Shown: positions 346 through 64,000, counted from the first letter of the stretch. The stretch is DNA of 64,000 bases from a virus (IMGVR_UViG_3300018079_000003:1-64000), one strand, 5' to 3'. Notes: generated by a model not told the origin, from the sequence alone. Made by a program: numbers and translations.

Positions 346-861
346 TCATATCGGGTGATCCCATTGAAACTTCAGCGCCAAGTCAACGGTAATTGCGGGC
401 GACCACGACATTTCATCGGGACGAACTTTAAACGAGTCTACGCGCTCTAACAAAGCCACCCCACCAACTGCCAAGCCGTCCATGCCAAATTCAGAGCAAA
501 AATATCTCGAATCCGACCGGCGCGGTTTAATCCCGCAAACAAAACAAATCACGCCCCAATAATCATATGGCGTGCCAAGTTCAGACTCACAAAAGACTCG
601 AACCGCCGCCGAATCAATTGGAACGCCGAGTTTAAACACAAAGGGCGTCACTCCCTTAGTGGATTTCAACGTAGTTTTACGCACCCCCTTGAACGGATAC
701 GCCTCATACACAATGCCGTCCTCAAACGCGATGGATACGTGCGCATATTTCGACCGGGAGAACCACCTAATTAAGGCGGCTCCAAACCCCTTACCGCGAT
801 AAAAATAAAGTCTCACGAACCTAGAATTTTCTTTTTCAACTGGTCGCGAGTTGGCACCCAA
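346..861 (-). CDS. Permuted papain-like / NlpC-P60-type amidase (YiiX/C92-like); candidate cell-wall hydrolase
   Basis: Motifs YAHVSI..G.VYEA (His region) and RYFCSEF (Cys region) are in the permuted order typical of the YiiX family. Last gene of the minus-strand arm. Confidence 0.4.
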   Translation of the reverse strand: MGANSRPVEKENSRFVRLYFYRGKGFGAALIRWFSRSKYAHVSIAFEDGIVYEAYPFKGVRKTTLKSTKGVTPFVFKLGVPIDSAAVRVFCESELGTPYDYWGVICFVCGIKPRRSDSRYFCSEFGMDGLAVGGVALLERVDSFKVRPDEMSWSPAITVDLALKFQWDHPI

Positions 862-1121: not shown

Positions 1122-2048
1122 CTATTTTGGACCAAAATGCGATGCGTAAGTTTGCGCTAAAGCGTCCTCCAAGCCCACCTGCGGTTGCCACCCCAAATCA
1201 AAAATTTTAGAGTTGTCCAATAATTTTTGCGGTGTTCCTGCGGGTTGGCTCGCGTCAAACTGAATGACTCCTTGATAGCCCACGGCGCGCGCGATAAAAT
1301 GTGCGATTTCATTTATGGAAAATTCCCGGCCGCTTCCGGTATTGATCGGCTCCGGGGCGTCGTAATCCTGCATCACCCGAAGTAACGCACGCGCCAGATC
1401 ATCAGAATAAAGTAATTCCCGCCGCGCCGTGCCCTCCCCCCATACAGTAAACGCCGGATCGCCCCGTAATTTCGCGTCATGCATCCGAGCCATCATGCCG
1501 GGAATAATATGCCCCGCCTCGCCGTCAAAAGTATCGTTTGGTCCAAAAAGATTACACGGCATTGCTGATACGAATTTACGCCCCCGCTCTCGGTAAAAAT
1601 ACTCACACAAAACCACTCCCGCGATTTTTGCTATCGCATACCCTCGATTTGTTTCTTCCAGCCGCCCTGACATTAAATATTCTTCCTTAATTGGTTGGCG
1701 GCAGTTTCTAGGATAAAGACAATTTGATCCCAGAAAAATCAATTTCTTTGCGCCATACGCCGCCGCGTTAAGAATTACATTCTGCTGTATCGCGAGGTTC
1801 TCACAAAGAAAATCCACCTGATGCGCGGCGTTATCTTTAATGCCCCCCACACGCGCCGCACACATGAAAACATACTCCGGGCGATACACCGAAAAAAACC
1901 ATTTTACCACAACTGGATCAGTGAGGTCCATCTCCTGTCGAGTCGCGGTAATCAGATGCTCGTGCCCTAATGACGCAAGCAACCGGACGAGCGCACTGCC
2001 CACGAGACCCCGGTGGCCTGCAATAAATATTTTAGATTGAATATTCAT
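1122..2048 (-). CDS. fcl: GDP-L-fucose synthase (GDP-4-keto-6-deoxy-D-mannose 3,5-epimerase/4-reductase)
   Basis: Collinear over its full length with E. coli Fcl/WcaG as recalled: [36 protein letters not shown]...RE.L..DD, FD.S.P.GTP.KLLD. Confidence 0.9.
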
Positions 2049-2079
2049 TTCTTAATTCGACTTGCTTGAAATTGAATAT

Positions 2080-2766
2080 TCATCTAGGAATACAAATCAA
2101 CTCGTGTAGATTCGCATCATATCGGCGAACTTCCCGGCAATTATATTGAGACAAATGGCCTAGAATTGACCCGGCGGTAAACCCCAACGGCGCAAGGGCG
2201 GCGGTAAACACTTCGACATGAATGACTGGCTTGTATTTTGCAATTAAATCTTTTGCTCCCGCCAACACCAGTGGCTCCCAACCTTCCGCGTCGATCTTTA
2301 AAAAATCCACCCGCGAGAATCCCAGGCGGTCCAGCGCGACTGTGCGATGAAAACCATCTCGAACCAGGGGCCGTCCACCGAGATGCCATTGTGCCCGCTC
2401 GCATGCCTCCGGCCCAGTCGAGCATTGATACAACTCATCTGAACCCACTGCCGCCTGATAGCAATGGGCCTCGGGGCAATTATGCACCAAACAGAAAAAC
2501 GCATCAGATTGAGGTTCAAATGCATATACCTCGCATCCCCGGAGCAAAAACATATGAGTTGTGTCTCCGATAAACGCCCCCACGTCAATGACGACCTGCC
2601 CCGGCACTAGCGCCCGGACCTCCGGCAAGCCGGTAAAATCATCGTCCCAATCCAACCGGCCCGCCCGCAGGGCCGATGCCGATCCCCCAAGATCGTCTGC
2701 CAAAACAATCTTTCCCGTCTCGCCGATTGGTGTGGTCTTAGGGATTTGCATGTTTAAACACCACAT
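2080..2766 (-). CDS. FkbM-family SAM-dependent methyltransferase
   Basis: VIDVGAFIGDTT SAM-binding motif and VDFLKIDAEGWEPLVLAGA, the FkbM signature. The start may be the ATG at 2751. Confidence 0.75.
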   Translation of the reverse strand: MWCLNMQIPKTTPIGETGKIVLADDLGGSASALRAGRLDWDDDFTGLPEVRALVPGQVVIDVGAFIGDTTHMFLLRGCEVYAFEPQSDAFFCLVHNCPEAHCYQAAVGSDELYQCSTGPEACERAQWHLGGRPLVRDGFHRTVALDRLGFSRVDFLKIDAEGWEPLVLAGAKDLIAKYKPVIHVEVFTAALAPLGFTAGSILGHLSQYNCREVRRYDANLHELICIPR

Positions 2767-3460
2767 GGTCTTGTATGAGACCGTGCAATACCGCTGCGGT
2801 CTTTACCGAATGTATCATCACCCGCCCGTAGAGCCGCACCAACTTCGACATCTCCGCGAACCCACGCTCGCTGGCCGTTTCAAAACTCGCCCCAGTGAAA
2901 AAACTGAGGTGCGGATGCCCACTGCCGCACGCAAGCTGAAGCATGTAATGGTCAATGCACTCGGTGGGAAACGGCATCGGCCAGTCCTCCGGGTTTTGCC
3001 GGGTATGATACGACGTGGGCAACTGGCAATCCAGCATCGCCCGGATACTTTTTCTCGATAAGAAGTATGGCGGCTGACAAGCCAACTTTGGCAACAATGA
3101 CGGCGCAGGATTTGTGTCCACTACCTCATTGGACCAGATCGTATCTGGCGATTCATAACAATACCGAGGAATCTCCGGCGACAGGCAAACTGAGTCCGCG
3201 TCGTGGAAAAGAAAATGCGCGTGCGGGAACTTCAGCATCAGTTCGAGAAATTTCCGATGCCGCTCCAGGGTCTGCGGCCCGATCCAGCCTTTCAGGCCGT
3301 CTGAAAGACAAATACAGCCCGGCATCTGCATGATCGGCGCATCGACGGGTGAAAATATCGCTACCGGGCACTCATGGTGCCGATAGATCGGAAGGTTGTG
3401 CTCGACTTGGTGCGCGTCTCCTGCGTAGGCCGAAACCACTACGAGTGTGTTGGGATTCAT
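2738..3460 (-). CDS. Putative glycosyltransferase, tandem paralog A
   Basis: Clear paralog of 3457..4164 (MNPNTLVVVSAYAGD vs MNPDTLVAVSCYAGD; FLFHDADS vs FLFNDSDS; WSNEVV; PPYFLSR). The DxD-like motif is DAD. Confidence 0.4.
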   Translation of the reverse strand: MNPNTLVVVSAYAGDAHQVEHNLPIYRHHECPVAIFSPVDAPIMQMPGCICLSDGLKGWIGPQTLERHRKFLELMLKFPHAHFLFHDADSVCLSPEIPRYCYESPDTIWSNEVVDTNPAPSLLPKLACQPPYFLSRKSIRAMLDCQLPTSYHTRQNPEDWPMPFPTECIDHYMLQLACGSGHPHLSFFTGASFETASERGFAEMSKLVRLYGRVMIHSVKTAAVLHGLIQDHVVFKHANP

Positions 3461-4164
3461 GGATGCTCCTGCGCATAGGCCCGATGATGCGCCAGCAATC
3501 GGTGTAGGTGATCCGAGGATTTTACCGGATGCACAAACACCCGGCCATGATATCGAACTCGGCCCGACATTTCACCCCACGACTCCCCCCATGGCTCCCC
3601 CATGCGATTGACCTTTGTCCACGGTTCTCCCGCCTCTAAAAAATTTTTATGAAAAATCCCGGCTTCACACACTAATTGCAACATATAGTGATCAATATAC
3701 GGCGTAATAGGATGGATAACGATCCGATCTGCCACCCCCACCATTCGCTGTATCAACGCTCGGCTTAAAAAATACGGGGGCTGCATGGCAATCTTTGGTA
3801 ATGACGACGCATGTGGTCGCGGCTCAACTACTTCATTTGACCACACCACATCCGGGGAATCATAAACATACCTAGGAATTTCTGCGGATAAACACATCGA
3901 GTCCGAATCGTTAAACAGAAAATATTTGTGCGGATAGGTCAGCAATATCTCTAAATATTTGCGTTGCCGATCCAAGGAGTCCTGACCAATATACGCGCGT
4001 TTTCCAGCATGACGACAATCCCATCCCGGCAGGTCCACGGGAGAATCTTCGGGAGAAAATATCACTACGGGCGTCTGATGATGAACGTATGCCTCGATAT
4101 TCCCCGTCACTTGACCAACATCGCCCGCATAACAAGAAACTGCCACTAACGTATCGGGATTCAC
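3457..4164 (-). CDS. Putative glycosyltransferase, tandem paralog B
   Basis: Paralog of 2738..3460. I place the start at GTG 4164, which gives a GTGA overlap with the upstream stop and an N-terminus MNPDT matching the paralog. The ORF track extends to 4236. Confidence 0.4.
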   Translation of the reverse strand: MNPDTLVAVSCYAGDVGQVTGNIEAYVHHQTPVVIFSPEDSPVDLPGWDCRHAGKRAYIGQDSLDRQRKYLEILLTYPHKYFLFNDSDSMCLSAEIPRYVYDSPDVVWSNEVVEPRPHASSLPKIAMQPPYFLSRALIQRMVGVADRIVIHPITPYIDHYMLQLVCEAGIFHKNFLEAGEPWTKVNRMGEPWGESWGEMSGRVRYHGRVFVHPVKSSDHLHRLLAHHRAYAQEHP

Positions 4165-4676
4165 CGGGCGATTTGAATTTGAAACTGTTGAAAACCGTCT
4201 GACTCCGGGACCACCACCGATGCGACTTCCCGCCACTCGGCCCCAAGGGAGGACGCGCGCTGTATAATCACTACGCCGGACTGCATCTCCAAACGAAAAA
4301 AATTATGAACATCCGAGCGGTTCACATAAAATACCGAGCAAAACACCTCGACGCCGTCCCGCCAGCCGGAAATCTCCACCGCTCGGCCCCGGTAGAGTAG
4401 CGGAGGATCGGTAGGCAGACTTTCAATCCCGGCTGTATTCACGGCGGTGAGCGAAAAATATGTGCCCGCATCCACGCCGCTTAACTCCCCCGTCGTGCCG
4501 GTGAAAGACGCGATCCACACATTATTCGCGTAAAGCCGGTATTCCAAAAGGTCCGGCTCCGTGTTAGCGCGCCATGAAAAGCCTACCGTGTCGGCCCGAA
4601 CCATTAAAATGGAACAAATTAGTAGTATCTTAGCAATTAGCTTTTTCATAAATTGGTCGTGGGTGCCGTCGCTCAA
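4161..4676 (-). CDS. Secreted FN3-like domain protein
   Basis: N-terminal signal-like segment MKKLIAKILLICSILMVRA, then a fibronectin-III-like pattern (FSW..N.E.DL.EYRLY ... GTYFSLTAVNTAGIES). Confidence 0.45.
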   Translation of the reverse strand: MSDGTHDQFMKKLIAKILLICSILMVRADTVGFSWRANTEPDLLEYRLYANNVWIASFTGTTGELSGVDAGTYFSLTAVNTAGIESLPTDPPLLYRGRAVEISGWRDGVEVFCSVFYVNRSDVHNFFRLEMQSGVVIIQRASSLGAEWREVASVVVPESDGFQQFQIQIAR

Positions 4677-4763
4677 TTACGGCATCCCCCGGAACGCATC
4701 CGGTGCGCTAGCATTTGCGCCAACCCACGATAAAATTGGTCGTCAGAGAAGGCCCGCCCCACG

Positions 4764-4835
4764 TCGCGGGGGATGGAGTCGAACCATCCGCCTCTTGGTT
4801 ATGAGCCAAACGAGCTACCGCTGCTCCATCCCGCA
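4764..4835 (-). tRNA. tRNA with CAU anticodon (elongator Met, or Ile2 if lysidine-modified)
   Basis: Hand-folded cloverleaf: D stem GAGC/GCTC, anticodon stem TTTGG/CCAAG, loop CTCATAA, T stem GATGG/CCATC, T loop TTCGACT. The acceptor stem has a U1:G72 wobble and an A7:C66 mismatch. No CCA is encoded. Confidence 0.8.
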
Positions 4836-5575: not shown

Positions 5576-5609
5576 AAGAAACAGTGGACTGGATTGCGGC
5601 AATTGGCCA
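5576..5609 (-). promoter_or_regulatory. CCACTGTTTCTT motif copy (candidate phage-specific promoter)
   Basis: Minus strand reads TGGCCA-N17-CACTGT-TTCTTTGTT-ATG. The 12-mer (5576..5587) is identical to three other copies. Confidence 0.45.
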
Positions 5610-6800
5610 CATTAAAATTTTTATTTTTTCCTTCGCCCGCGTGGAGTTGATGAACAAATCCTTGGTCCACGACTCTTGGTTCCCCGCACAGTTGCACTGA
5701 ACTTGGCAGCTTTGTTCGCTCATATTTTTATTGGATGATTACGACTTTCGATCCGGGAGGCAGGACTACCCAGTGGTCGGTATCGAATCGACGACCCGCC
5801 CCGGCTTGTTTTGGCCCACACGCATGCCTGCGCATGTATACAAAGCGGATCGCCACACTGGCGAATCGACCAGAGCCGACATATTACCAGAAAAATATTC
5901 GGCTGTCAAGTGTTCCAACCTTTATATTTCGTGTAGGCGGCTCATGCTTGGTCCTACGGCGAAACGCGGTAGGACCATGCGACGTTTTCACACGCGCGCA
6001 AATACTTACGCCGCGAAAGACATTTTTCTTCCCACACTCTCGTGCCGGGCCGTCCGTTCCATCGTTGGAACGTGTAGCGCCGGAAAGTCAGACCGAAAAT
6101 TTTGACCGCTTCCAAAACCAAGCAGGCTTTATCGCCAAAAGGATTAAGCCAACCGTCGAGCGGATAGGGGATTTCTGTGCGTGCGTATTTCATAAAATAG
6201 TTGCCATATTTTTGACCAAATTACACCAACACCCCTCGATGTCAAATTTTTATATTTTTCGATCCCGATTTTTTGTATCTCGAAAGGGTCAATAAGCAAA
6301 GACGCCGGGATTACGGTCACTCTAAGCCGAGTTCATATCGCGGTTTGGCTACAGTCCGCCTAATTGCGCTTCTGAATCCCCACCGTCGCGAATTCGGTCC
6401 CACTCGAGCGGCGTCATAGAAGTAGTGGACCGCGCCGAGCGGTTTTACCACTTCGATCTCGATTTTTCGTATCTCGAAACTGTCACTGAGCGAAGATGCC
6501 CCGGCAAAAACCCCCGAAGGCACTTTCAAAATTGCGGATCGGGCTATTTTGGCGGAAGTCGTTGAGTATCAGGACGTTACGACGAATCGGCGATTCGTCG
6601 GACAGCCGTTCTGAAGAAGGGGTTGCGGATTTTTGGCTTGACGCCGGAACGCCCTAATGGCGTTTGGCGGGACGTTAACGTTAACGTTATAAAGCTCGCC
6701 GGGACTCGGATCGCCCTTTCGCTTACGGGCACCCCGGACGTAGGACATAAATTAAGTAAATCCCCTAGTTTTCCTTCCGTAGATATTCATGTCGAATTAT

Positions 6801-6829
6801 TTGACTGTTTAAACAGTTTATGCGATAGT
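6801..6829 (+). promoter_or_regulatory. Sigma70-type promoter, leaderless configuration
   Basis: TTGACT-N17-GATAGT, with ATG 6835 five nt after the -10. The spacer begins with GTTTAAAC. Confidence 0.55.
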
Positions 6830-6834
6830 GCGGT

Positions 6835-7086
6835 ATGAAAAAGATATCACAATACACTGACAGCGGAGGGGGTAACGGAGTAATTGACTATCCAGTGAAC
6901 GAATACGTGGTGCTGGGAAATCGGCTATTTCGTAAAATTGGAATGCAAAAAGTGCCGGTTCAGTGTCACTGGTTTACTAACAAGGAAGGCTCCTGTTTAA
7001 TGGACCAGTGGGGTTTCACGCATCAGATTGACTATCCGGTGAACGATTTGACAACGTTTAAACCATCTGATAATATAACAATATGA
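6835..7086 (+). CDS. Early hypothetical protein (cassette A)
   Basis: 83-aa ORF with an internal IDYPVN repeat. Its N-terminus MKKISQYTD is shared with 8364..8525. ATGA overlap with the next gene. Confidence 0.5.
   Translation: MKKISQYTDSGGGNGVIDYPVNEYVVLGNRLFRKIGMQKVPVQCHWFTNKEGSCLMDQWGFTHQIDYPVNDLTTFKPSDNITI
7048..7076 (+). promoter_or_regulatory. Sigma70-type promoter, leaderless configuration
   Basis: TTGACA-N17-TAATAT, with ATG 7083 six nt after the -10. It is embedded in the 3' end of the preceding ORF. Confidence 0.65.
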
Positions 7087-7361
7087 CATACAACCAAGCT
7101 GAAAAACTCGGAAACCGCCAAGATTTTATTCGCGAGTATGCTGCCGCCATGAAGGCGGATTGCGACTCGGGCAAGCACGCCTACATTATCCCGGCAGATG
7201 GATGGGAAGGGCTTGCGGCCCGGATGGTAGCGTCGATTCTTGTTGGACGGGCGCACGTTTCGGACGTTGCGAAGAAAATCGCCAAGAAGTTTGGGGCTAG
7301 GCCAACCGTGGCCGGGGTCACCGAATTGCTAAAGGGCCTGCCGGAAGCGGGCGGGCGGTAA
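7083..7361 (+). CDS. Early hypothetical protein (cassette B)
   Basis: 92 aa. N-terminus MTYNQAEKLGN is shared with 7693..8037. Confidence 0.55.
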   Translation: MTYNQAEKLGNRQDFIREYAAAMKADCDSGKHAYIIPADGWEGLAARMVASILVGRAHVSDVAKKIAKKFGARPTVAGVTELLKGLPEAGGR

Positions 7362-7407
7362 AATAAATTTGACAACCCAATCAAAAAAAATCTACTGAAA
7401 GGATCAA

Positions 7408-7650
7408 ATGAAAATCGAAATTACAGGCGCGATGGTGAATATCCACAAAGAGGAATCGGACAAACGGTTCAAAAACGATTCGCAGTTCTTTTATGCGTTG
7501 CGTAACGCACTTCGGGCGCAAGGCCGCGATGAGCGGAGCGCGGGCCTGTATTGCATGCATGACCGCAATAGGAATGGGTCTGTAAATTTTCGATGTGGTC
7601 GCGCATACAATAAGGATGGGTCTGTAAATTTTCGATTGGAACGGCAATAA
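7408..7650 (+). CDS. Early hypothetical protein (cassette C)
   Basis: 80 aa. Paralog of 8068..8367 (MKIEITGAMV..KEESDKRF..DSQFFYALRNALRAQGRD). AAAGGA SD-like sequence 5 nt upstream. Confidence 0.6.
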   Translation: MKIEITGAMVNIHKEESDKRFKNDSQFFYALRNALRAQGRDERSAGLYCMHDRNRNGSVNFRCGRAYNKDGSVNFRLERQ

Positions 7651-7657
7651 TAAAAAT

Positions 7658-7686
7658 TTGACAACGTTTAAACAATCTGATACTAT
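7658..7686 (+). promoter_or_regulatory. Sigma70-type promoter, leaderless configuration
   Basis: TTGACA-N17-TACTAT, with ATG 7693 six nt after the -10. Near-duplicate of 7048..7076. Confidence 0.65.
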
Positions 7687-7692
7687 AACAAT

Positions 7693-8037
7693 ATGACATA
7701 CAACCAAGCAATCGAAAAACTCGGAAACCGTGAGCAGAAAAAGATCGCTAACAATACCTACCTTTGCCGAAGGCAGGATGGGGCAGTGGCGGTCCGGCTG
7801 CATGCGACAGACATCCTGACCTTCCGGCCTGATGGTAGTGTGGTTCTTACCACTGGCGGCTGGCGTTCGGTGACCACCAAGGCGCGCTTGAACGCCTACT
7901 GCCCCATCGGGCGCGGGATTGGCCAACGGGCCGGCGTGTGGTATCACGGCTCAACTAAGGTTGAAATGATGGAAGGCGACCGCATCAATGAAGCCACGGG
8001 CGCAGTTTGGCGCACGGACGGCACCGTGGTGCTTTAA
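7693..8037 (+). CDS. Early hypothetical protein (cassette B')
   Basis: 114 aa. Shares promoter and N-terminus with 7083..7361, then diverges. Confidence 0.55.
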   Translation: MTYNQAIEKLGNREQKKIANNTYLCRRQDGAVAVRLHATDILTFRPDGSVVLTTGGWRSVTTKARLNAYCPIGRGIGQRAGVWYHGSTKVEMMEGDRINEATGAVWRTDGTVVL

Positions 8038-8067
8038 TTGGCTCGGCCATATTACTGAAAGGATCAA

Positions 8068-8367
8068 ATGAAAATTGAAATTATAGGCGCGAGGGTGATT
8101 GTCCGCAAAGAGGAATCGGACAAACGGTTCCGAAGTGATTCGCAGTTCTTCTATGCGCTGCGCAACGCATTGCGCGCGCAAGGCCGCGACGTGATTAAGA
8201 AGCTGATGGCCAAGGATGGTCACATGGTCAGCGCGGGTGTTTACTACATCCGCGACCGCAAAGGCGCGTATGCAATTCATGACCAAAACTATCAGATTGC
8301 TAGCGCGGCAGAAGACTTTAATAAGGATGGATTCGTAAATCTCAGACTTGAGCGATTGTCGGCATGA
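8068..8367 (+). CDS. Early hypothetical protein (cassette C')
   Basis: 99 aa. Paralog of 7408..7650 with the same ACTGAAAGGATCAA upstream sequence. Confidence 0.6.
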   Translation: MKIEIIGARVIVRKEESDKRFRSDSQFFYALRNALRAQGRDVIKKLMAKDGHMVSAGVYYIRDRKGAYAIHDQNYQIASAAEDFNKDGFVNLRLERLSA

Positions 8368-10445: not shown

Positions 10446-10648
10446 TGAGCCAAAACATAAAAGAAGTTCTCGATTGTTATCTCGCCGCTCGTAAAAATCT
10501 TTTAGATTTAGTGGAGGCATTGCCGGCATACGTATCTGAAAAAAACTGCCCGCTTCGCTCGGATCATTGGGCACTTTCGAATCAGCTTTTTGGAGTGGGG
10601 AGCTATGGTTGGGCATGTAAATTTTGCGGAGAGACCCACGACACATGA
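10445..10648 (+). CDS. Small hypothetical protein
   Basis: MSQNIKEVLD..., with a TAATG overlap upstream and an ATGA overlap downstream. Confidence 0.45.
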   Translation: MSQNIKEVLDCYLAARKNLLDLVEALPAYVSEKNCPLRSDHWALSNQLFGVGSYGWACKFCGETHDT

Positions 10649-11751
10649 GCAGAATTGCAAAAGACCCGGCCCTATCCGCCCTCGCGGTGGAACTAAAGAC
10701 TACCAAATTTAGCGACGCCCCGGACCTTGAAGAAGTCATCCGCGAGCGATTTGTGGAACTAGCTCGTGGGCATGGCGAATATCCTTTTCGTCTGGTTTAT
10801 CAGATGCCCGATTTCAAAACGTGGGTGGTTCGGCTATACCTTGGCGGCGCAGTCCGCACCATCGGCTTTTCTGCTCGTTTAACTGATGCATGCCGATACG
10901 CCGACATGGCTGCGCTTCGGTTCTGGAAATACCGGGTGCGGGGAGCGTCCGAGCCGGTGGATGCCAATCTCAATTTCGACGTGGCTCAGGCAAAATATGA
11001 CAGCACGGAGGAAATTGAGGCCGCATATTTATTAGACCGAATTGAAAATTACTTACTGTCATCCGGCGCGCTCGGCGACCCCAAACAATCTGAAATTGAC
11101 CGGCAGCGCAACCGAAAAGCGCGCGATGCTCGCAGGACCGTGCGCCATGACCTGCACGCGCTGATCGACGGGTTGAATGAAAAACTAGACTTGATCGACG
11201 CGCGGCTAAAACATATCGAGGATGGGGTTTGTAAAAAGCAAATAAATCCTGAGTGGGTTAGGTCTGAGTGGGATGTTTGTTTTGAGCCTCGCGGAAGGGA
11301 TTTTAAACACGAGCCAAATCCGGCGTGGCGCGATCCCCTGCCGGGTGAGGTTACGGGCGCAGTTTTTTCGCCTGCGGGGGAAATAAGATTAGTGCCCTTC
11401 AATGTGTGGGTGATTCCTGACCACTATATTACTCTTCATGTGCCCGCGCGGATTGTGAATGGTTTGGAAATTCTAACCCCGGAAGCGCATGAGATGATCT
11501 GGAAATACCGGGTGCGGGGAGCGTCCGAGCCGGTGGATGCCAATCTCAATTTCGACGTGGCTCAGGCAAAATATGACAGCACGGAGGAAATTGACCGCGC
11601 TCGTAAAGATGAGCGCGCAATGGAAGGCGAAATTCGCGGCGTGCAATCCGGTCCCGTGCCCGAAGAAGTAAAAGTAGTCGCGCAAGACGTAATTACTACG
11701 TTGGAAAATCTTTTTTCGTCATCGCCTATTGATAACTCGCCGAAATCATGA
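10645..11751 (+). CDS. AP2-like DNA-binding protein carrying an internal 97-bp duplication
   Basis: WVVRLYLGG..IGFS....A.RYADMAALRFW......ANLNF resembles an AP2 domain. The C-terminal half of that segment is repeated exactly. Start placed at the ATGA overlap. Confidence 0.45.
   Translation: MSRIAKDPALSALAVELKTTKFSDAPDLEEVIRERFVELARGHGEYPFRLVYQMPDFKTWVVRLYLGGAVRTIGFSARLTDACRYADMAALRFWKYRVRGASEPVDANLNFDVAQAKYDSTEEIEAAYLLDRIENYLLSSGALGDPKQSEIDRQRNRKARDARRTVRHDLHALIDGLNEKLDLIDARLKHIEDGVCKKQINPEWVRSEWDVCFEPRGRDFKHEPNPAWRDPLPGEVTGAVFSPAGEIRLVPFNVWVIPDHYITLHVPARIVNGLEILTPEAHEMIWKYRVRGASEPVDANLNFDVAQAKYDSTEEIDRARKDERAMEGEIRGVQSGPVPEEVKVVAQDVITTLENLFSSSPIDNSPKS
10922..11018 (+). repeat. 97-bp perfect direct repeat, copy 1
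   Basis: Identical to 11498..11594 by base-by-base comparison. Confidence 0.9.
11498..11594 (+). repeat. 97-bp perfect direct repeat, copy 2
   Basis: Identical to 10922..11018. The 576-nt offset keeps it in frame. Confidence 0.9.
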
Positions 11752-11763: not shown

Positions 11764-12654
11764 ATGAGAATTTTAAAGAAACATATTCAAAAACTAAATT
11801 CCATTCTTGATTCGGGCTTGATCAGAGGGTCCGGCAGTAAAGCCAAGCCGGGAAATATCTGCGTTGAGCAGGCGGTTTGTATCGCGCTTGGTTACAAATT
11901 CTCCGACAATCCACCGTGCGTCTCGCGCGCTTTTCGTTCTCTGAAAATGCGGCTGAATGATTGCTCTGGTTGGTCGTCTAATAAAGCGCGGGCCGAAGGA
12001 TTGCGAAAACTCGCTGTCGTGCAAATTGGTTCTCGCGGCGCGTTGGATGATCAGGAATTTACCCGGCGAGTCACCGAAGCTACAATCCAACAAATTATCC
12101 CTCGTGCGCTTCGTAATGCTGCAAAAGTTTGTCCGCGCTATGCTGAACGGCTTGAAGCGGCGGCTGTTCGTTGCATGCAGGAAGGCACGCGGAAGGCGGC
12201 ACTTGCGGCTAAAGAAATCGCCGGTCGCGCCGCCACCACCGCCAACGTTGCCGCCACCACCGCCGCCAACGCCAGCTACGCCGCCACCGCCGCCGCCAAC
12301 GCCGCCGCCACCACTGCCGATGCCGCCCGCTACGCCGTCAACGCCGCCAACGCCGCCGCTGACTGCGCCGCCGACTGCGCCCACGCCGCCAACGCCGCCG
12401 CCGCTGCCGATGCCGCCGCCAGCGCCGCCCACGCCGCCGATGCCGCCACCACTGCCGCCGCCGACTGCGCCCACGCCGCCGATGCCGCCGCCACCACTGC
12501 CGTTGCCGCCCGCTACGCCGCCCACGCCGCCGATGCCGCCGCCAATAAAGCAACGGCGCGCGATGCCGAAATGATTTTTTTCGCCGATATGGTGCTGGCG
12601 ATCCTTGTAGATATGGCAGTGCCCGGCGTGAAATACCTCAAATGGATCAAGTAA
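11764..12654 (+). CDS. Protein with an Ala-rich periodic repeat domain
   Basis: A globular N-terminal ~150 aa, then ~105 aa of xAA-periodic sequence (ARYAAHAADAA, ADCAHAADAA), then a short hydrophobic C-terminus. Confidence 0.55.
   Translation: MRILKKHIQKLNSILDSGLIRGSGSKAKPGNICVEQAVCIALGYKFSDNPPCVSRAFRSLKMRLNDCSGWSSNKARAEGLRKLAVVQIGSRGALDDQEFTRRVTEATIQQIIPRALRNAAKVCPRYAERLEAAAVRCMQEGTRKAALAAKEIAGRAATTANVAATTAANASYAATAAANAAATTADAARYAVNAANAAADCAADCAHAANAAAAADAAASAAHAADAATTAAADCAHAADAAATTAVAARYAAHAADAAANKATARDAEMIFFADMVLAILVDMAVPGVKYLKWIK
12228..12546 (+). repeat. GCC-rich low-complexity coding repeat
   Basis: Degenerate GCCGCC(A/G)(C/A)C units. The region is open in several frames on both strands. 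Confidence 0.85.
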
Positions 12655-12752
12655 TAAATTTTTGGTGCATAGCTTAATTAGAGCGACGGCAGAAATCGTA
12701 TGGATGCGGGTAAATCCCGCTGCACCAAATTAAACCCCATAAAAGTAAACCT

Positions 12753-13073
12753 ATGATCAAAGAACACATCCCGCAACCTCTCACCATCGACGTGGCCCGC
12801 AAGCTGGCCGGTGCGCTGGCGAGAGTCAACGAACTGGGTGCGACGGCGATTCAAACGCCGACAATTGAAGCGGAACTGCGCGGGCAATCCGAATTCATTG
12901 CGAACACTCTGCGCGACCACGCGGACGAATTTGTTTCGTGTTGGTTCACCATCCAACAGGAATACGGGCCGCTGGTCCGCGCCGCCGCCACGCTGTTCCG
13001 CCGCGCGGCGGACGTGAACAACCAAGCCCGGCAATTGGAACAGGCACACGCTGCTGCTGGCAAGACGGAGTAA
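12753..13073 (+). CDS. Hypothetical protein
   Basis: 106-aa ORF. No motif recognised. Confidence 0.5.
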   Translation: MIKEHIPQPLTIDVARKLAGALARVNELGATAIQTPTIEAELRGQSEFIANTLRDHADEFVSCWFTIQQEYGPLVRAAATLFRRAADVNNQARQLEQAHAAAGKTE

Positions 13074-27204: not shown

Positions 27205-29210
27205 ACCACATAAGTTTAGATTTTGAGACGTTTTTCAGTCGGAAGTTGAAATATGGCCTTCGGACTATGATTGCCGAGACATATTGTCGGCATCCTCTTT
27301 TTGATCCATATTTAATTTCGGCCTGTGATGGCACAACTTCGTGGGTCGGGCATCCTCGGGATTTTAATTGGGACTCTTTACGGGGCCGAAGTATCGTGGC
27401 ACACAATTGGTTTTTCGAGAAGTCGGTAATCATGGAAATGGAACGGCGGGAGTGGATTCCCCCGGTTCTAGCACATATCAAAGAGGCCCACTGTAGTGCG
27501 AATCTTACCGCTTACTTTTGTAACCGTCGCGCACTTGATCAAGCCGTGGAATATCTTTACCAAGTCAAGGTGTCCAAAGACGCCCGTGGAAATGCCGATG
27601 GCAAACACTGGCCCAAAGATTTTTCCCCAGAGGAACAAAAGACGATGTTGGAATACGCAAAGGGTGACGGCTGGTGGTGTTGGAAGTTGTGGGAAGACCA
27701 CTCATCCAAGTGGCCGCAGATGGAACGCGAGTTGAGCCGCATCACGATTGACCAAGGCTTGCGTGGCTGTCAGATCAACGCTGAATTGTTAGATACTTAC
27801 ATCGTGCAAACCCACGAGATGAAGGCCAACACGGAAAAAGTTTTACCATGGATGGGACGCGCGGAAGATGAAGACGACGAGTCGTGGGAAGACTTTAACC
27901 GGAAGCCCACCTCAACCAAGTGCATCGCGGAACAATGTAAGCGATCCGGCATCCCGTGCTGCCCGGTCAAATCGGATGACGAAGAAGCCTACGCCGAGTG
28001 GGAAGCTCTCTATGCGCCCGCGCACCCGTGGATTCACGCGGTTGGTGCGTGGCGATCCGTCAACAAGCTTTACAAAACTTTTCTCAAGGTGAAGTCTCGA
28101 TTACGTGCGGATGGCACGATGCCCTTCGCGCTAAAATATTTCGGCGCGCATACGGGCCGGTGGTCGGGAGCCGAGGGCATAAATATGCAAAACCCCCGTA
28201 AGCGCCCGATCTTTTGTAACGAACACGGGCTGATGGAGTCTAAGGTTTTGCGGGAAGATGAGGCGTTGTCCTATAAAAAAGAAACCGGCGTGTGGCCTGC
28301 GTGGGTTCGGTTCGCGGTAGATTTTCGACATTTGATTGTTCCGAGACCCGGCAAGCGCATGGTCGTTTCGGACCTTAGCCAAATTGAGCCGCGCGTGCTT
28401 GCGTGGTTATGTGGTAACGCAGAACTGTTGGCACTCATGGCCCAAGGCATGACGCCATACGAAGCACATGCCAGAGCGACCATGGGTTGGACCGGCGATG
28501 TGTCTTTAAAAGATGCGGGTAAAATCGACCCGAAGGCGGAGTTAATGTATAAATTAGCGAAAGCGCGGGTGTTGGCGCTGGGCTATCAGGCGGGGTGGGA
28601 AAAATTTGTTGTTATGGCATTGGATACGGGGTTGGATATTACAAAAGACGATCCCGAATTCATTGAAGTGACGTGCCCAATTACGGGTAAAACCAAACAG
28701 GTGAGCGGCTACGGCACAACCAGCAAAAAGATAGTCGCGGAATTTAGAGAACAGAACCCCAAGATTAAGGGTTTGTGGGAACACCTAGATAGTGCGTTTA
28801 AACGATCCGTGGGTTCAGATTTTTCTATGACCTTGCCTAGCGGGCGGGTGATGAAGTATGACAAGGTGCGTTGTGAAATCTGCATCGAAAAGGACAAAGA
28901 GACAGGCAAACCCAAGCGGCGGTCGGTTTTCACCGCAGATATTGGGGGCCGACGTAAGATTATTTACGGTGGACTTTTGACTGAAAATATCACACAAGCA
29001 GTTGCGCGGGACGTGTTTGCGTGGCATATTGTGAATATGGCTCGGCGCGGTTGGTTGAATTTATTTTCGGCCCATGACGAAGCGATCCTCGAAGTGGACG
29101 CCGACGTGAGCGCGAAGGACGTGGAACAGGAAATGAGTCGATGCCCGGAGTGGATTCCGGGGTTGCCGGTTGCCGCCGAGGCTAAGATCGTCCCGCACTA
29201 TTTAAAATGA
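27201..29210 (+). CDS. Family A DNA polymerase with a 3'-5' exonuclease domain
   Basis: ExoI SLDFET. Motif A VVSDLSQIEPRVLA, motif B KLAKARVLALGYQAG, motif C SAHDEAILEV. Confidence 0.85.
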   Translation: MNHISLDFETFFSRKLKYGLRTMIAETYCRHPLFDPYLISACDGTTSWVGHPRDFNWDSLRGRSIVAHNWFFEKSVIMEMERREWIPPVLAHIKEAHCSANLTAYFCNRRALDQAVEYLYQVKVSKDARGNADGKHWPKDFSPEEQKTMLEYAKGDGWWCWKLWEDHSSKWPQMERELSRITIDQGLRGCQINAELLDTYIVQTHEMKANTEKVLPWMGRAEDEDDESWEDFNRKPTSTKCIAEQCKRSGIPCCPVKSDDEEAYAEWEALYAPAHPWIHAVGAWRSVNKLYKTFLKVKSRLRADGTMPFALKYFGAHTGRWSGAEGINMQNPRKRPIFCNEHGLMESKVLREDEALSYKKETGVWPAWVRFAVDFRHLIVPRPGKRMVVSDLSQIEPRVLAWLCGNAELLALMAQGMTPYEAHARATMGWTGDVSLKDAGKIDPKAELMYKLAKARVLALGYQAGWEKFVVMALDTGLDITKDDPEFIEVTCPITGKTKQVSGYGTTSKKIVAEFREQNPKIKGLWEHLDSAFKRSVGSDFSMTLPSGRVMKYDKVRCEICIEKDKETGKPKRRSVFTADIGGRRKIIYGGLLTENITQAVARDVFAWHIVNMARRGWLNLFSAHDEAILEVDADVSAKDVEQEMSRCPEWIPGLPVAAEAKIVPHYLK

Positions 29211-29608
29211 GGCGTTGTTCTTCTTGTCGTAAGGTTAAGCCGTTGCCGGAATTTTATAAGGCAGCGGCCAAAGCGAATCGGGGTTATCAATACAACTGTA
29301 AGCGGTGCTGTTGTGGCTTAGCGCATAGTTGGCGACAAAGAAATCCCCGCCGCGAACGATCCATACAACTTAAGAAAAATTATGGTATTACGATCCAACA
29401 GTTTGAGGCCGTGGAAAGGTGTCAAAAAAGACGCTGTGCAATTTGTAAGAAGCGCGCTAAATTGACGGTCGATCATTGTCACGCTCGGTTAGTTGTGCGG
29501 GGCCTTCTTTGTGCCAAATGTAACGCTGGAATCGGGTTGCTTTGTGATTCGATAACTATTTTACAATCCGCTATTGTGTATCTATCTCCCGATGTTCTTC
29601 GCGACTGA
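29207..29608 (+). CDS. Recombination endonuclease VII
   Basis: CAICKK....LTVDHCH....VRGLLCAKCNAGIG, the T4 endonuclease VII family signature. Confidence 0.8.
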   Translation: MRRCSSCRKVKPLPEFYKAAAKANRGYQYNCKRCCCGLAHSWRQRNPRRERSIQLKKNYGITIQQFEAVERCQKRRCAICKKRAKLTVDHCHARLVVRGLLCAKCNAGIGLLCDSITILQSAIVYLSPDVLRD

Positions 29609-31781
29609 AAATTTAACGACGAAATCCGTATCTCCGTGCGATCCGTGGACCTTCATTCCGCCGCAGCAAGTGTCGAAACAAATCCGGCACGATAAACAAA
29701 GTCGCCAAGACTGGTATCGTAATATTGACACCCAATGGAATTTTTATACGCCGCTCGAAGCGTCCAACCCGAACCAGCGAGTCAGTAACGAAGATAACCC
29801 GTCGAAATTCATTCACGGCTTCGCGGCGGACTATGACGTGAAGATTCCCATGTCGCGCGTGTTGGAAGTTGTCGCCGCGATGGATATAAAGCCGTCGTGG
29901 ATCGAAACCTCGCTGGGCGGTAAAATCCGGCTGGTGTGGCTATTTCTCAAACCGTTGCGGGTGGACGGCACGGATTTTTGTATTTTCTTACTTGAACGCG
30001 CCATGAAGTGGTTGCGTCTGGATTTATTGCCGGGCCTTGATGAAGGCGCTTTCACTGACCCAACCCGGCTGTTGTGCAACGGCGGAGAGTGGCTGGCCAC
30101 TGGACACGGTCCACTCGCTGAGGTGCCATTGCAGGTATTTTACATCGGGGTCGCTCGCGACTTTCAGTTTGTCTCTACCGACCTCGCCGAGGTGCCGTTG
30201 GATGTCGTGGAAGAAAAAATCAAGGAAAAATATCCGAATTTTAGCTGGCCCGGCGAATTTGCGTATGAGACACAGGGGCCGTCGTTTTGGATACCGGAAT
30301 CAAAGTCGGCTATGTCGGCTATCGTCAAAAAGGACGGCATGTTTACCTTCTCGGATCATGCCGACAAGTCTTTTTACTCTTGGGGCGATATTTGTGGTGT
30401 CGATTTTCTCAAGGGCCACGCCGACAACGCGATTGCGGTTGCTACTAAAGATATTTATTGGGATCAGAAGAATTTTTGGAGGAAGAAGTCCGGTTTCTAT
30501 GCGCTCATGGGGATGACCGAGCTACAAAACTTTTTCAAAGTCCAGTGCCGTCTCAGCGCCAAGCCGGGCAAATCCGGCCAGTCTCCGGTTGATCTGGCGC
30601 TCTACCATATCTATACGACCAACTGTATCATCGGCGCGGGACCGTTTGTGTTTAAACCCTCCGGGTTAATGGAGTATATGGGCCGACCCGTGTTAAATAC
30701 TTACATACCGCGCGCGCTCGTCCCCGCAGCGGGCGAACAGAAATGGGGTCCAGATGGTAATTTTCCGTTTCTCTCCCAACACTTCGACGTGTTATTTGAT
30801 CCCGTCTATCAAAAAAAATTTTTTCTGGCGTGGTGGAAACATTTTTATACTTCGGCATATACGCTGACGCCGATGCCCGGCCCGAATGTCTATCTGGTCG
30901 GCGGCACGGATGTGGGCAAGACGATGACCAGTCGGGCAATCATTAGTCTGTCGGTGGGTGGCTTTGTGGATGCTTCCGGGCATCTGATCGGCGGCGAGTC
31001 GTTCAATTCACACATCTACGAAAAACCGCTGTGGGTGATTGACGATGAAGTCGTGGGCGACAACTCAGCGGCGCAAACCCGATTTCATGCGATCTGGAAA
31101 AAGACCGCCGCCAACCAACAATTTTTGTTTAGTAAAAAATACGAGGTGCCCTTGACAATTGATTGGATGGGTCGTATCTTTTGCACGTTGAATATGGATT
31201 ATATTTCCAGCCGAATCATGGGGCCGATGGACGGCTCGGTGATCGACAAGACTTGCGCGTTCCGCTGCCCCGCTGTTTCAAAAATTATTTTCCCCTCCCG
31301 ATACGAACTGGAAAAAATCATTGCTTGTGAACTGCCTTACATGCTTCGTTGGCTGCTGGACTGGGAGCCACCCGACTACGTGCTGCGGGATGTCCGGTAT
31401 GGATTCAAGTCTTATCAAGAGTCTTCCCTGCTCGACAAAGCCCATCAGGGCGGTAAGTCTGCACCCTTCAAGGAATTGTTGATCGAGGTGTTGCAGAATT
31501 ATTTTATTCAGGAGAAAAACGCAACAGAATGGCGCGGCACGGTTACACAACTCCTGCGGATGTTGCAGACCAACCCCCATAACGAATCCATTCTGCGGCT
31601 GTTGCGATTGGAACAGACCAATCGCTACCTCGAAATGATCCAACGCGAAGCCCTCGTGGAATGCACCGTCGAGACCGGTCCGATGAAGACCCGCGTGTGG
31701 GTCTTTGCCCGGTTCGGCGATTTGCCGCCCGCTGTCACGCCCGCTTTATTAACCCCCACTCATAACCCCTTTACGAAATGA
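29592..31781 (+). CDS. Primase / SF3 (D5-like) helicase
   Basis: Walker A GGTDVGKT and Walker B WVIDDEV in the C-terminal half, with a large primase-like N-terminal half. Start taken at ATG 29592. Confidence 0.65.
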   Translation: MFFATENLTTKSVSPCDPWTFIPPQQVSKQIRHDKQSRQDWYRNIDTQWNFYTPLEASNPNQRVSNEDNPSKFIHGFAADYDVKIPMSRVLEVVAAMDIKPSWIETSLGGKIRLVWLFLKPLRVDGTDFCIFLLERAMKWLRLDLLPGLDEGAFTDPTRLLCNGGEWLATGHGPLAEVPLQVFYIGVARDFQFVSTDLAEVPLDVVEEKIKEKYPNFSWPGEFAYETQGPSFWIPESKSAMSAIVKKDGMFTFSDHADKSFYSWGDICGVDFLKGHADNAIAVATKDIYWDQKNFWRKKSGFYALMGMTELQNFFKVQCRLSAKPGKSGQSPVDLALYHIYTTNCIIGAGPFVFKPSGLMEYMGRPVLNTYIPRALVPAAGEQKWGPDGNFPFLSQHFDVLFDPVYQKKFFLAWWKHFYTSAYTLTPMPGPNVYLVGGTDVGKTMTSRAIISLSVGGFVDASGHLIGGESFNSHIYEKPLWVIDDEVVGDNSAAQTRFHAIWKKTAANQQFLFSKKYEVPLTIDWMGRIFCTLNMDYISSRIMGPMDGSVIDKTCAFRCPAVSKIIFPSRYELEKIIACELPYMLRWLLDWEPPDYVLRDVRYGFKSYQESSLLDKAHQGGKSAPFKELLIEVLQNYFIQEKNATEWRGTVTQLLRMLQTNPHNESILRLLRLEQTNRYLEMIQREALVECTVETGPMKTRVWVFARFGDLPPAVTPALLTPTHNPFTK

Positions 31782-32509
31782 AAAATGGACACCGGAGAAA
31801 AACGGGTAATTCGGCGCATAACGATTTATTGCGGGGAATTCCTGAGACCCGCTTAAGCCTTGAGCAGGAGAGCGCGCTTTCTGACAAGATTCAGGCCAGC
31901 AAAAAATCCGATGAGGACTCAATAAATGCTCTGGCGCTGCACAACCTGCGCGAAGCCTTCTATTATGCCCTCGCTTGTTCAAAGACGCTGCCCCCGGACG
32001 ACGTCTACAGCCTTTGCTACGCGGCCCTTCGATACGCCGCCACCAATTTCAAATACCGAGGCGCGCGTTTTTTCCCCTACTCTAAGGCGTATATCCGGGG
32101 AGAAATCTATAAAACATTTAATGATCGAAACGTCGTCAAAGATGCCATTTGCGAACCGTTGCGTTTAGGGGACGAGGAAATGGTTAGAGAGATCGAAGAG
32201 TCGGAAAACGGCCACCCCCTTAGTTTGCGCCGCCCTCGTAATTTTATTGAGCCTACCGTCGAGTCGGACCTTCATGGGATCGTCATCCGGGATGAGTGGG
32301 GGCGGATCAAGCCGATTTTTCGGGACAAACTCTCTGAAAAGGAGCGGATGGTGTTGGAATTGAAATTCGAGGGCGGATTCAACTTTAGAGAAATCGGCGA
32401 TTTACTGCGGGTCTCCCGGTCGGATACACAGGCGACACACACGCGGGCTTTGAGAAAAGTGCGTTGTGTGCTGATGAGAAAAAAGGCACTATTTAATAGA
32501 CACCAATGA
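31778..32509 (+). CDS. Sigma-70 family RNA polymerase sigma factor (two-domain)
   Basis: Region 2-like F..YSKAYIRGEIY. Region 4 HTH ERMVLELKFEGGFNFREIGDLLRVSRSDTQATHTRALRKVR. Confidence 0.75.
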   Translation: MKNGHRRKTGNSAHNDLLRGIPETRLSLEQESALSDKIQASKKSDEDSINALALHNLREAFYYALACSKTLPPDDVYSLCYAALRYAATNFKYRGARFFPYSKAYIRGEIYKTFNDRNVVKDAICEPLRLGDEEMVREIEESENGHPLSLRRPRNFIEPTVESDLHGIVIRDEWGRIKPIFRDKLSEKERMVLELKFEGGFNFREIGDLLRVSRSDTQATHTRALRKVRCVLMRKKALFNRHQ

Positions 32510-54719: not shown

Positions 54720-55448
54720 CTATTTTCCCAAAAGGGATTCACGAGAATAGCTCATCAAACTTCCATCTTTAACCCCATGGATGAACGCCCATCCCTGTTT
54801 TTTTAACCACTCGTATTCTTTAAATTCCATCGTCCTCTGCCCGCAACGGTTCAGATTTTTCTGCGAAAAGCCTACCCCCCACTCCGTAAACTTTGGAAAC
54901 AGATAAATGTCCCACGGCTGTTTGGGGGGCACGCCGGTCATAGTTATGCCCATCACCAACCATTTCAGGAAATCGAGGTTCCCAGTTACCATGATATTAC
55001 CGTTCAAATGCTGGGAACAGTTAAACGTATCGGATGACTCGGCTCCGACCAAGCAAGTGTTTAAACGAATGAACTCTTCGTTACACTCATTGATCCACGT
55101 TTTCGAGATCGGGACCACATCGGCCTCAAGAGCTATGATCCATTTGTAATCTGGTATTTTTCCTTGAGACTTCATGTGGTAGAACCATTCCATCAACGAA
55201 AACCAAAGAACCCAACACCCCCACGGGTGCCCCTCTCCGTGCGCGACACACCGGAGTTTACGAACGTTGAATTTCCTAGACACATGCGCCACGGCTGCCT
55301 CATCATGATCACAGTCCCACCTCGCGATGAAAACAAAATCAATATCGTCCCGGCGCACGGGTTCAATATCGGCAATGAACTTTGCCAGCCGCATCGCTTT
55401 AACTTTATCACCTGCCCAGAATTGAACGGCAATGATTCCTTTTTTCAT
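54720..55448 (-). CDS. Putative glycosyltransferase (GT-A-like)
   Basis: N-terminus IIAVQFWAGD resembles VVSAYAGD of the 2738/3457 paralogs. ALEADVVP is an acidic motif in the DxD position. Confidence 0.35.
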   Translation of the reverse strand: MKKGIIAVQFWAGDKVKAMRLAKFIADIEPVRRDDIDFVFIARWDCDHDEAAVAHVSRKFNVRKLRCVAHGEGHPWGCWVLWFSLMEWFYHMKSQGKIPDYKWIIALEADVVPISKTWINECNEEFIRLNTCLVGAESSDTFNCSQHLNGNIMVTGNLDFLKWLVMGITMTGVPPKQPWDIYLFPKFTEWGVGFSQKNLNRCGQRTMEFKEYEWLKKQGWAFIHGVKDGSLMSYSRESLLGK

Positions 55449-55816: not shown

Positions 55817-55828
55817 GTTTGGGGTGTT

Positions 55829-63961: not shown

Positions 63962-64000
63962 TACAGGGGTCGTCCGCAGTCGAGGATAAGAGTCGGATCG

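Follow-up and report, generated by a model that had tools for sequence, protein, structure and literature searches.

The 64,000-nucleotide viral DNA IMGVR_UViG_3300018079_000003:1-64000 (all of which we call the window) carries near its left end a minus-strand array of genes at 1122-4835. The array includes fcl, encoding a GDP-L-fucose synthase-like enzyme, an FkbM-family methyltransferase gene, and two paralogous glycosyltransferase-like genes that we call ParA and ParB. The question raised by this array (hereafter the arm) is what a phage would do with activated fucose, and what it would decorate with it. A previous model reading (the sequence-only reading) had proposed that the arm works together with an island of genes at 54720-57456. 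We observed that the two do belong together, since relatives of this phage hold Par and gmd/fcl-type genes between the island genes o299/o242 and a capsid-like gene, o432 (gmd encodes GDP-mannose 4,6-dehydratase). With about even confidence, we read the arm as the displaced accessory half of a lineage-wide glycosylation cassette, which would supply fucose or methyl-fucose and add it to a virion-protein glycan that o299 and o242 begin.

Relatives of the locus were retrieved in two ways. A search with ParA gave 21 IMG/VR, 2 NCBI and 2 JGI loci. An independent search with o432, hence not selected for Par, gave 80 loci, of which 48 were unique complete cassettes. More than 80 IMG/VR contigs encode an o432-like gene, and the phages of this uncultured lineage are 68-75 kb in size. 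The conserved gene order was o636, o683, o447, o299, o242, (gmd), (fcl or another short-chain dehydrogenase/reductase, SDR), (one or two Par genes), o432, o170, o339, where the genes in brackets vary. We observed that o299 and o242 lay between o447 and o432 in all the unique cassettes (48/48). Both a Par gene and an SDR gene were present in 32 of these cassettes, a Par gene only in 2, an SDR gene only in 5, and neither in 9. In many related cassettes gmd adjoined the fcl-type gene. New here are two apparently unclassified families of the glycosyltransferase A (GT-A) fold, fixed between scaffold-like and capsid-like genes across a large uncultured lineage. Also new is the core/accessory architecture, with a two-locus split, a loss of gmd and a unique gain of FkbM in this genome.

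When we compared the window with its closest canonical relatives (L019 and L030), these had the layout o299-(Par)-ParA-gmd-fcl-o245-o242-o432. The order o299-o245-o242, as in the window, was found in three unique cassettes. From this comparison, it looks as if the arrangement of the window arose from the canonical one by displacement of ParA and fcl over ~15 kb and loss of gmd. A sister phage (L028/L029), with ~75% nucleotide identity to the window, had its arm at the same place, in the order o83, o119, tRNA-Met, signal protein, ParA, fcl, o171L, a 546-aa protein and a trypsin-like protease. The arm of L028 was without ParB and FkbM, and the position of the tRNA-Met gene was conserved in both L028 and L029. 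A search for the insertion site in relatives, using the 546-aa neighbour as the query, gave only partial matches that did not inform on the site. We also surveyed fcl neighbourhoods in the best 80 of the 206 viral stretches matching fcl, and no contig with a window-like island (of the L040, L101 type) was found among these 80. Genes of homing-endonuclease type (NUMOD3, Endonuclease_7, AP2) were present in or beside the cassette of many relatives, often between Par and o432 (L003 5831-6349 and 11672-12157; L004 11694-12212; L030 757-1257; window 29207-29608). Such endonucleases may be drivers of cassette shuffling and translocation.

The genes named for the arm in the sequence-only reading were all found on the minus strand, at or close to the positions it had given. 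In the order of transcription, the arm starts with a tRNA-Met gene (anticodon CAT, 4763-4835), upstream of the protein-coding array. This tRNA had been counted with the operon; it lies slightly beyond the end at 4676 given for it. It is followed by a gene for a small signal-like protein of 162-171 aa with a hydrophobic N-terminus (4161-4676, probable ATG start at 4649), then by ParB (235 aa, 3457-4164), ParA (240 aa, 2738-3460), FkbM (223-228 aa, 2080-2766, start more likely at 2751) and fcl (308 aa, 1122-2048). For ParB, a longer version with a GTG start at 4236 had been suggested, and we judged it less likely. The small-protein gene overlaps ParB by 4 bp, as does ParB with ParA; ParA and FkbM overlap by 14-29 bp, and FkbM and fcl are separated by 31 bp. 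These overlaps and the short gap are consistent with a single minus-strand operon, as had been proposed.

We then examined the two Par proteins. ParA and ParB are 46% identical (E 2e-71), and relatives carry distinguishable ParA-type and ParB-type orthologs. The ParA family has 186 members, all metagenomic and many on contigs of 68-75 kb, and none of them has a Pfam domain. For the sequence families, we searched Pfam up to E<=10, PHROGs up to E<=1 and, by sequence and by profile, PDB; NCBIfam was searched with ParA and ParB. ParA and ParB had no Pfam match at E<=10, no NCBIfam match and no glycosyltransferase PHROG. ParA had no tblastn match in 50,697 GenBank phage records, and a search of 185,579 species genomes found no Par homolog, cellular or prophage-borne. 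An AlphaFold2 (AF2) model of ParA, made with the family alignment, had a predicted local distance difference test score (pLDDT) of 96. In Foldseek searches of PDB and BFVD, nearly all the top matches of this model were GT-A proteins, with a few nucleotidyltransferases; they included xylosyltransferase 1, glycogenin, the blood-group enzymes GTA/GTB, C2GnT, ColGalT1 and many annotated viral glycosyltransferases. The top matches for the ParA and o299 models had E values of 1e-4 to 9e-8 and template modelling (TM) scores of 0.4-0.6. The ParA motif D87-A-D89-S90 (DxDS) was invariant in 121 aligned sequences, and ParB has the counterpart DSDS at 86-89. The modelled fold and the DxD motif suggest that ParA is a GT-A protein outside any described family, and by its identity to ParA the same assignment is predicted for ParB. 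The two had earlier been called glycosyltransferase-like, and it is structure (the ParA model) that backs this name and not any sequence family.

The island holds the universal part of the cassette. The first of its genes, o299 (56557-57456, minus strand), comes directly after the scaffold-like gene o447 and belongs to a family of 417 members, none with a Pfam match. In 121 sequences D97 and D99 of its DDD motif (97-99) were invariant and D98 was at least 90% conserved; the GED motif at 261-263 was also invariant. The o299 model had a pLDDT of 91, and its best matches were STIV A197, LH3, ColGalT1, mimivirus R699, ppGalNAc-T2 and SpsA. Matches to sequence families were sub-threshold (Anp1 0.022, phrog_34859 3e-4), and the only tblastn match in the same GenBank phage records was weak and partial, to a marine virus without annotation. 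The model and motifs point to o299 being a GT-A glycosyltransferase-like protein without a described sequence family. Several of these top structural matches (LH3, ColGalT1, mimivirus R699) are collagen glycosyltransferases, and the window also encodes a collagen-repeat tail fibre at 49543-50874 (minus strand; Pfam Collagen and many tail-fibre PHROGs). This may be a coincidence at the level of the fold.

The second universal gene, o242 (54720-55448, minus strand), had no PDB or Pfam match. Its motifs were collinear with those of ParA and ParB (AGD at 12-13, E/DxD at 86-108 and HxVK at 212-224), being AGD at 12, EAD at 108 and HGVK at 224 in o242 itself; the hhalign probability between o242 and Par was low (7.6%). 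We tentatively consider o242 as probably a distant Par-like GT-A protein. Between these two genes lie o245 (55829-56566) and the small open reading frame (ORF) o122 (55448-55816), both on the minus strand. The fold of o245 is unassigned, and it is an accessory gene that most relatives lack but that L019, L030 and L101, the closest ones, possess; no relatives of o122 were found. Neither o245 nor o122 had a match in Pfam, PHROG or profile comparisons, or any detectable glycosyltransferase relationship. The proposal that the arm feeds structural-module glycosyltransferases holds for o299 and is plausible for o242, and it is unsupported for o245 and o122. Profile-profile comparison among the cassette families gave nothing significant beyond the motif-level resemblance of o242 to Par.

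The upstream boundary of the cassette is o447 (57456-58799, minus strand), a K/E/A-rich protein with weak coiled-coil-type matches only. Its composition and conserved position suggest a scaffold-like coiled-coil protein. The downstream boundary is o432 (52898-54196, minus strand). Further out, o636 had weak matches to terminase PHROGs (0.012 and 0.031), and o683 had no family by Pfam, PHROGs or PDB searches. No transmembrane segments were found in the glycosyltransferase-like proteins, Fcl or FkbM, and the chemistry of these enzymes would therefore be cytoplasmic.

PHROG matches of the window include DNA polymerase A, a helicase, an exonuclease, a tail fibre and virion structural proteins. The same DNA was recovered in 4-6 assemblies, one of which has a 69,179-bp contig matching the window at 99.99-100% identity. 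Starting at window position 1, this contig crosses 5,232 bp that are outside the window and enters it again at window position 64000, and the window in turn spans the contig's own 53-bp break (window 12405-12457). The window and the ~5.2-kb gap together are a circular phage map of ~69.2 kb. Besides the 546-aa protein and small ORFs, the gap encodes a trypsin-like protease, a LamG-like protein and a small resolvase-type serine recombinase. These three (L001 14136-16595) are placed between the arm and the terminase-like gene, and the recombinase is the sole hint of integration or inversion.

We also considered whether the arm was flanking host DNA, with an attachment (att) site or boundary at 5600-6800. 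The GC content was flat across this region, and the arm was genome-like both in GC and in GC at third codon positions (GC3). The same junction and the same arm were present in the sister phage L028, and the map closes as a circle. On these observations we rejected a host origin of the arm. The region at 5700-6835 is instead a 1.1-kb non-coding strand switch with a change of sign in GC skew and no compositional boundary. It has divergent promoter-like TTGACA-17-TAATAT sites (extended TG) at 5909-5881 (minus strand) and 7048-7076 (plus strand), and its role may be that of a control region or origin. The left part of the region is 86% nucleotide-conserved in L028, which is above its flanking genes.

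Fcl (an extended SDR) showed 44-45% identity to E. coli Fcl over its full length. Its best PDB matches were all GDP-L-fucose synthases (7ll6, 1.5e-88), and it matched Pfam Epimerase at 2e-54. The NADPH-binding motif GHRGLVGS (residues 11-18) aligned to GHRGMVGS of E. coli. S108, C110, Y137, K141 and H180, corresponding to S107, C109, Y136, K140 and H179 of E. coli, were all conserved. From the E. coli structures, we take S108/Y137/K141 to be the catalytic Ser-Tyr-Lys triad and C110/H180 the acid-base pair for 3,5-epimerisation. Inactivating substitutions at these residues had been raised as a possibility; all of them are retained, and the gene is intact. Fcl is 66% identical to that of L019, which adjoins a bona fide gmd (514 bits against an equivalog cut-off of 415). 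Phage-borne fcl is common (206 viral stretches match it). At the nucleotide level, GenBank phages matched the arm DNA only at tRNA genes and, over a short stretch, in the fcl of Synechococcus phage S-SRM01.

The partner gene gmd was absent. With E. coli Gmd as the query, tblastn of the closed map (window and 5.2-kb gap) found none. The phage has fcl but no gmd, and its fcl is an orphan. The pathway had been described as self-contained, with gmd possibly lying past the left edge; we read the 5.2 kb beyond that edge (via L001), and neither suggestion was borne out. In 73 of the 80 other viral contigs (the best 80 of 206), gmd was present within 8 kb of fcl, whereas 10 of the 26 fcl-bearing cassettes of this lineage had fcl without an adjacent gmd. 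From this comparison, the loss of gmd appears to be tolerated specifically within this phage lineage. The fcl slot of relatives is often occupied by a divergent extended SDR (L004 10732-11697; L006 5171-6106; L007 8420-9328; L009 11364-12332). These are 24-29% identical to fcl, with Fcl still their best NCBIfam family (98-134 bits), and would point to a different sugar in those phages. Directly downstream of fcl, both here (346-861, minus strand) and in L028, is a gene for a permuted-papain/NlpC-P60-like protein, with weak YaeF/C92 matches and phrog_1128 at 4e-27.

The methyltransferase FkbM, which is S-adenosylmethionine (SAM)-dependent by family, matched Pfam Methyltransf_21 (PF05050) with 48 bits (cut-off 22.7), TIGR01444 with 65 bits (cut-off 37.7) and phrog_8156. 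It was present in no related cassette and not in the sister phage L028, nor was an FkbM gene seen beside fcl in any of the 80 other viral contigs (best 80 of 206). Its place between a glycosyltransferase gene and fcl suggests that it may O-methylate a sugar.

Together, these observations can be arranged into a working scheme. The universal core would be the two soluble glycosyltransferase-like proteins o299 and o242, which stay in the head-gene block. The accessory half would consist of one or two Par GT-A enzymes together with a module for the nucleotide sugar, which may be gmd with fcl, only fcl, or a different SDR; it would normally sit in that block as well. Here and in the sister phage, it would have been displaced upstream by ~15 kb within one long array of co-directional genes, to its present place beside tRNA-Met and the gene for the exported small protein. 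As the phage is without gmd, host Gmd would be needed to supply GDP-4-keto-6-deoxymannose. Phage Fcl, judging from its homology and intact residues, would convert this to GDP-L-fucose. The glycan would be started by o299 and o242, and ParA and ParB (DxD-type and probably metal-dependent) would add fucose or neighbouring sugars; this step is suggested by the core/accessory pattern and the co-occurrence of Par with SDR genes. FkbM, going by its position, would O-methylate a sugar of the glycan. The acceptor would most likely be a virion protein, since the core genes are as position-conserved as the flanking head genes, and the outcome would be a variable glycan coat.

Among the virion proteins, the leading candidate for the acceptor would be o432. 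Its mean column identity among relatives is 87%, and its variable part is the C-terminal ~40 residues, a Cys-flanked, Ser/Thr-rich tail (for example CADTSSSSFSGSDSF..GVCGDDE, followed by a variable extension). A broader reading, which we hold only tentatively, is that capsid glycosylation is a core trait of this widespread uncultured lineage of ~70-kb phages. Under this broader reading, o299 and the Par/o242 superfamily would O-glycosylate the Ser/Thr-rich tail of the capsid protein, and swappable modules of sugar-nucleotide enzymes, glycosyltransferases and methyltransferases (fcl with gmd or as an orphan, other SDRs, and in this phage FkbM) would generate glycan 'serotypes' of the virion.

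Several points weigh against a virion glycan. The virion acceptor is a supposed one, and position by itself is no proof, since non-virion auxiliary genes also sit in late or structural modules. The designation of o432 as the probable major capsid protein comes from position, size and conservation only; it had no family (Pfam, PHROG), PDB or HK97-type match, and no match in the GenBank phage records. The co-occurrence of Par and SDR genes (Fisher 5e-5) is not corrected for phylogeny. The NCBIfam model for Fcl (NF047922) gave 366 bits, by far the best family but below the equivalog cut-off of 500 bits; the L019 ortholog, which adjoins a true gmd, scored similarly (353 bits). The arm is translationally coupled to the gene for an exported protein whose role the scheme leaves unexplained. 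Finally, the arm is directly downstream of the sigma-70-like promoter at the strand switch, and this position might mean early expression, which would be a better fit for remodelling of the host.

Such remodelling is the strongest of the alternatives and a serious rival, although we consider it less likely. On the cytoplasmic side of the membrane, undecaprenyl-linked units of O-antigen, capsule or exopolysaccharide would be modified. The altered surface of the infected cell would then block superinfection or keep progeny from re-adsorbing, with the exported protein belonging to the same surface programme. The neighbouring promoter and exported protein agree with this, and phage gmd, fcl and glycosyltransferase genes are usually read as cell-wall or lipopolysaccharide (LPS) genes, as in cyanophage S-SCSM1 (PMC9602691). 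Reliance on host Gmd would imply a host that already makes GDP-deoxyhexose polysaccharides, and the sugar-nucleotide module varies among relatives, as it does in O-antigen loci. However, the core is fixed between o447 and o432 in 48/48 cassettes, which would be unusual for a host-specific moron, and it is universal even though the lineage is deeply diverged (the terminase-like and portal-like proteins are ~60% identical). The scanned genes included no Gtr-type or membrane glycosyltransferase, flippase or polymerase, and the enzymes have no transmembrane segments. The cassette lies in the head-gene block and not beside an integrase or att site, and there is no evidence of lysogeny beyond the small resolvase-type recombinase.

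The coupling of the arm to the small exported protein suggests another acceptor outside the virion. This protein had been described as a signal-peptide fibronectin type III (FnIII) protein. We found the hydrophobic, signal-like segment at its N-terminus, and the FnIII part drew weak support from a single PDB match (the FnIII domain of chitinase A1, E=0.15), with no Pfam match even at E<=10. It could be modified in the cytoplasm before export, as in adhesin glycosylation of the HMW1C or TibC type. Its gene overlaps ParB by 4 bp here and ParA in L028, where the same gene precedes ParA, and this coupling is kept across ~25% nucleotide divergence. Only 3 homologs were found, however, compared with 186 for Par and 417 for o299, and it is absent from all the canonical cassettes. 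Being so rare, it could not be the lineage-wide acceptor and would at most be an extra target of a subclade; as an explanation of the system we regard it as improbable.

It is still less probable that fcl and its neighbours are decaying cargo, left non-functional after translocation and the loss of gmd. The missing gmd would be in line with decay, given that 73 of 80 other viral fcl contigs (best 80 of 206) keep it within 8 kb. However, the ORFs are all intact and tightly coupled, and the catalytic residues of Fcl and the DxDS motif of Par are kept. Compared with its ortholog in L028, fcl is more similar in protein (81%) than in nucleotide sequence (77%), and fcl without gmd recurs in 10 of the 26 fcl-bearing cassettes of the lineage. 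The weakest alternative is hypermodification of the phage DNA with glycosylated hydroxymethylated bases for evasion of restriction, and we know of no report of GDP-fucose as a donor for DNA glycosylation, which counts against it. The glycosyltransferases with which phages decorate DNA are diverse and often unclassified, according to two reports (bioRxiv 10.1101/2023.12.21.572611, PMC13326640). Among the precomputed Pfam hits of the replication module, there was no domain of a hydroxymethylase, a thymidylate-synthase-like protein, TET/5mYOX or a DNA methyltransferase, and the cassette sits in the head-gene block away from nucleotide-metabolism genes.

Glycosylation of the virion by a phage's own enzymes has precedents, with which we compared the present system. 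In mycobacteriophages, phage glycosyltransferases make glycans that are borne by the C-termini of capsid and tail-tube proteins (Freeman 2023, cited through PMC11256854 and PMC12619734). The likeness to these mycobacteriophages (Che8 and others of cluster F1) would lie in the soluble phage glycosyltransferases, the capsid C-terminal tail as acceptor (proposed here) and the variable surface coat. In contrast, no sequence relationship was found (ParA and o432 had no tblastn match, and o299 the one weak partial match, in the 50,697 records). The mycobacteriophage glycosyltransferase genes are near the right end of the genome (PMC11256854), whereas those of this phage lie between scaffold-like and capsid-like genes. 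This phage adds a nucleotide-sugar enzyme and a methyltransferase, and its system is known from genes alone.

Chloroviruses apply their own GT-A enzymes and O-methyltransferases to capsid glycans (PMC9614988). PBCV-1 (GMD, GMER, A064R, A061L; PMC9614988) resembles this phage in having a viral enzyme of the GDP-fucose pathway and DXD-containing GT-A enzymes with very low similarity to known families. In PBCV-1, dedicated O-methyltransferases act on the terminal 6-deoxyhexose of the capsid glycan, and a methyltransferase is likewise present here. Unlike this phage, PBCV-1 is a eukaryotic giant virus with N-linked glycans, and it has genes for GMD as well as GMER. Of these two steps, the 69-kb phage has that of GMER/Fcl only, and it has a methyltransferase of the FkbM type and a compact head-module cassette.

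The capsid protein of the archaeal Sulfolobus turreted icosahedral virus (STIV) is glycosylated. A197 of this virus (PDB 2c0n), also a small viral GT-A protein, was the best structural match of o299 (E 8.8e-8). The likeness is at the level of the fold only (11% identity, TM 0.42-0.62), and o299 is 100 residues longer, with an extra helical insertion. The colanic-acid WcaG/Fcl of E. coli (PDB 1bsv) is 45% identical to the phage Fcl over the full length and has an identical catalytic set; the cellular enzyme always has its Gmd partner encoded in the operon with it, whereas the phage Fcl is alone. The gmd-fcl-glycosyltransferase clusters of cyanophages (S-SCSM1, PMC9602691) share with this phage an fcl homolog and co-located glycosyltransferases. 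They differ in that gmd is beside fcl, the genes are read as host cell-wall genes, and the clusters are in large T4-like genomes, outside the head-assembly genes.

A few other features of the window were observed outside the cassette. The 243-aa protein encoded at 31778-32509 (plus strand) has Sigma70_r4 domains. It looks like a sigma-like factor of the phage's own and could be a timer of late transcription. At 7083-8367 (plus strand) a two-gene unit (92 and 80 aa) is followed by a tandem duplicate of itself (114 and 99 aa). Shared between the two units are the N-termini MTYNQA..EKLGNR and MKIEI.GA.V..KEESDKRF..DSQFFYALRNALRAQGRD, and a Kyano_Gp96 Pfam match is on record for the 114-aa copy. 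An exact 97-bp direct repeat (10922-11018 and 11498-11594) lies within a 375-aa ORF at 10624-11751. The stretch at 12001-13000 is a GC-rich block (0.62 compared with 0.52 for the genome), and the 69,179-bp contig breaks inside it.

Glycosylation of virions by viral enzymes is established in chloroviruses and some mycobacteriophages. A glycosyltransferase pair that is as conserved as the adjoining head genes, and that comes from unannotated families, makes this lineage a concrete and testable case. The split layout and the orphan fcl illustrate how such a cassette evolves, with a fixed core, mobile accessory sugar modules and a possible dependence on host Gmd. For annotation, genes of this kind would otherwise be labelled as hypothetical, or fcl as a cell-wall auxiliary gene, and they bear on how phage surfaces vary, on immune or receptor shielding, and on host range. 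If the broader reading is true, programmed virion glycosylation would reach well beyond the actinobacteriophages, and the coat chemistry of these phages would be tied to a host metabolite, GDP-4-keto-6-deoxymannose.

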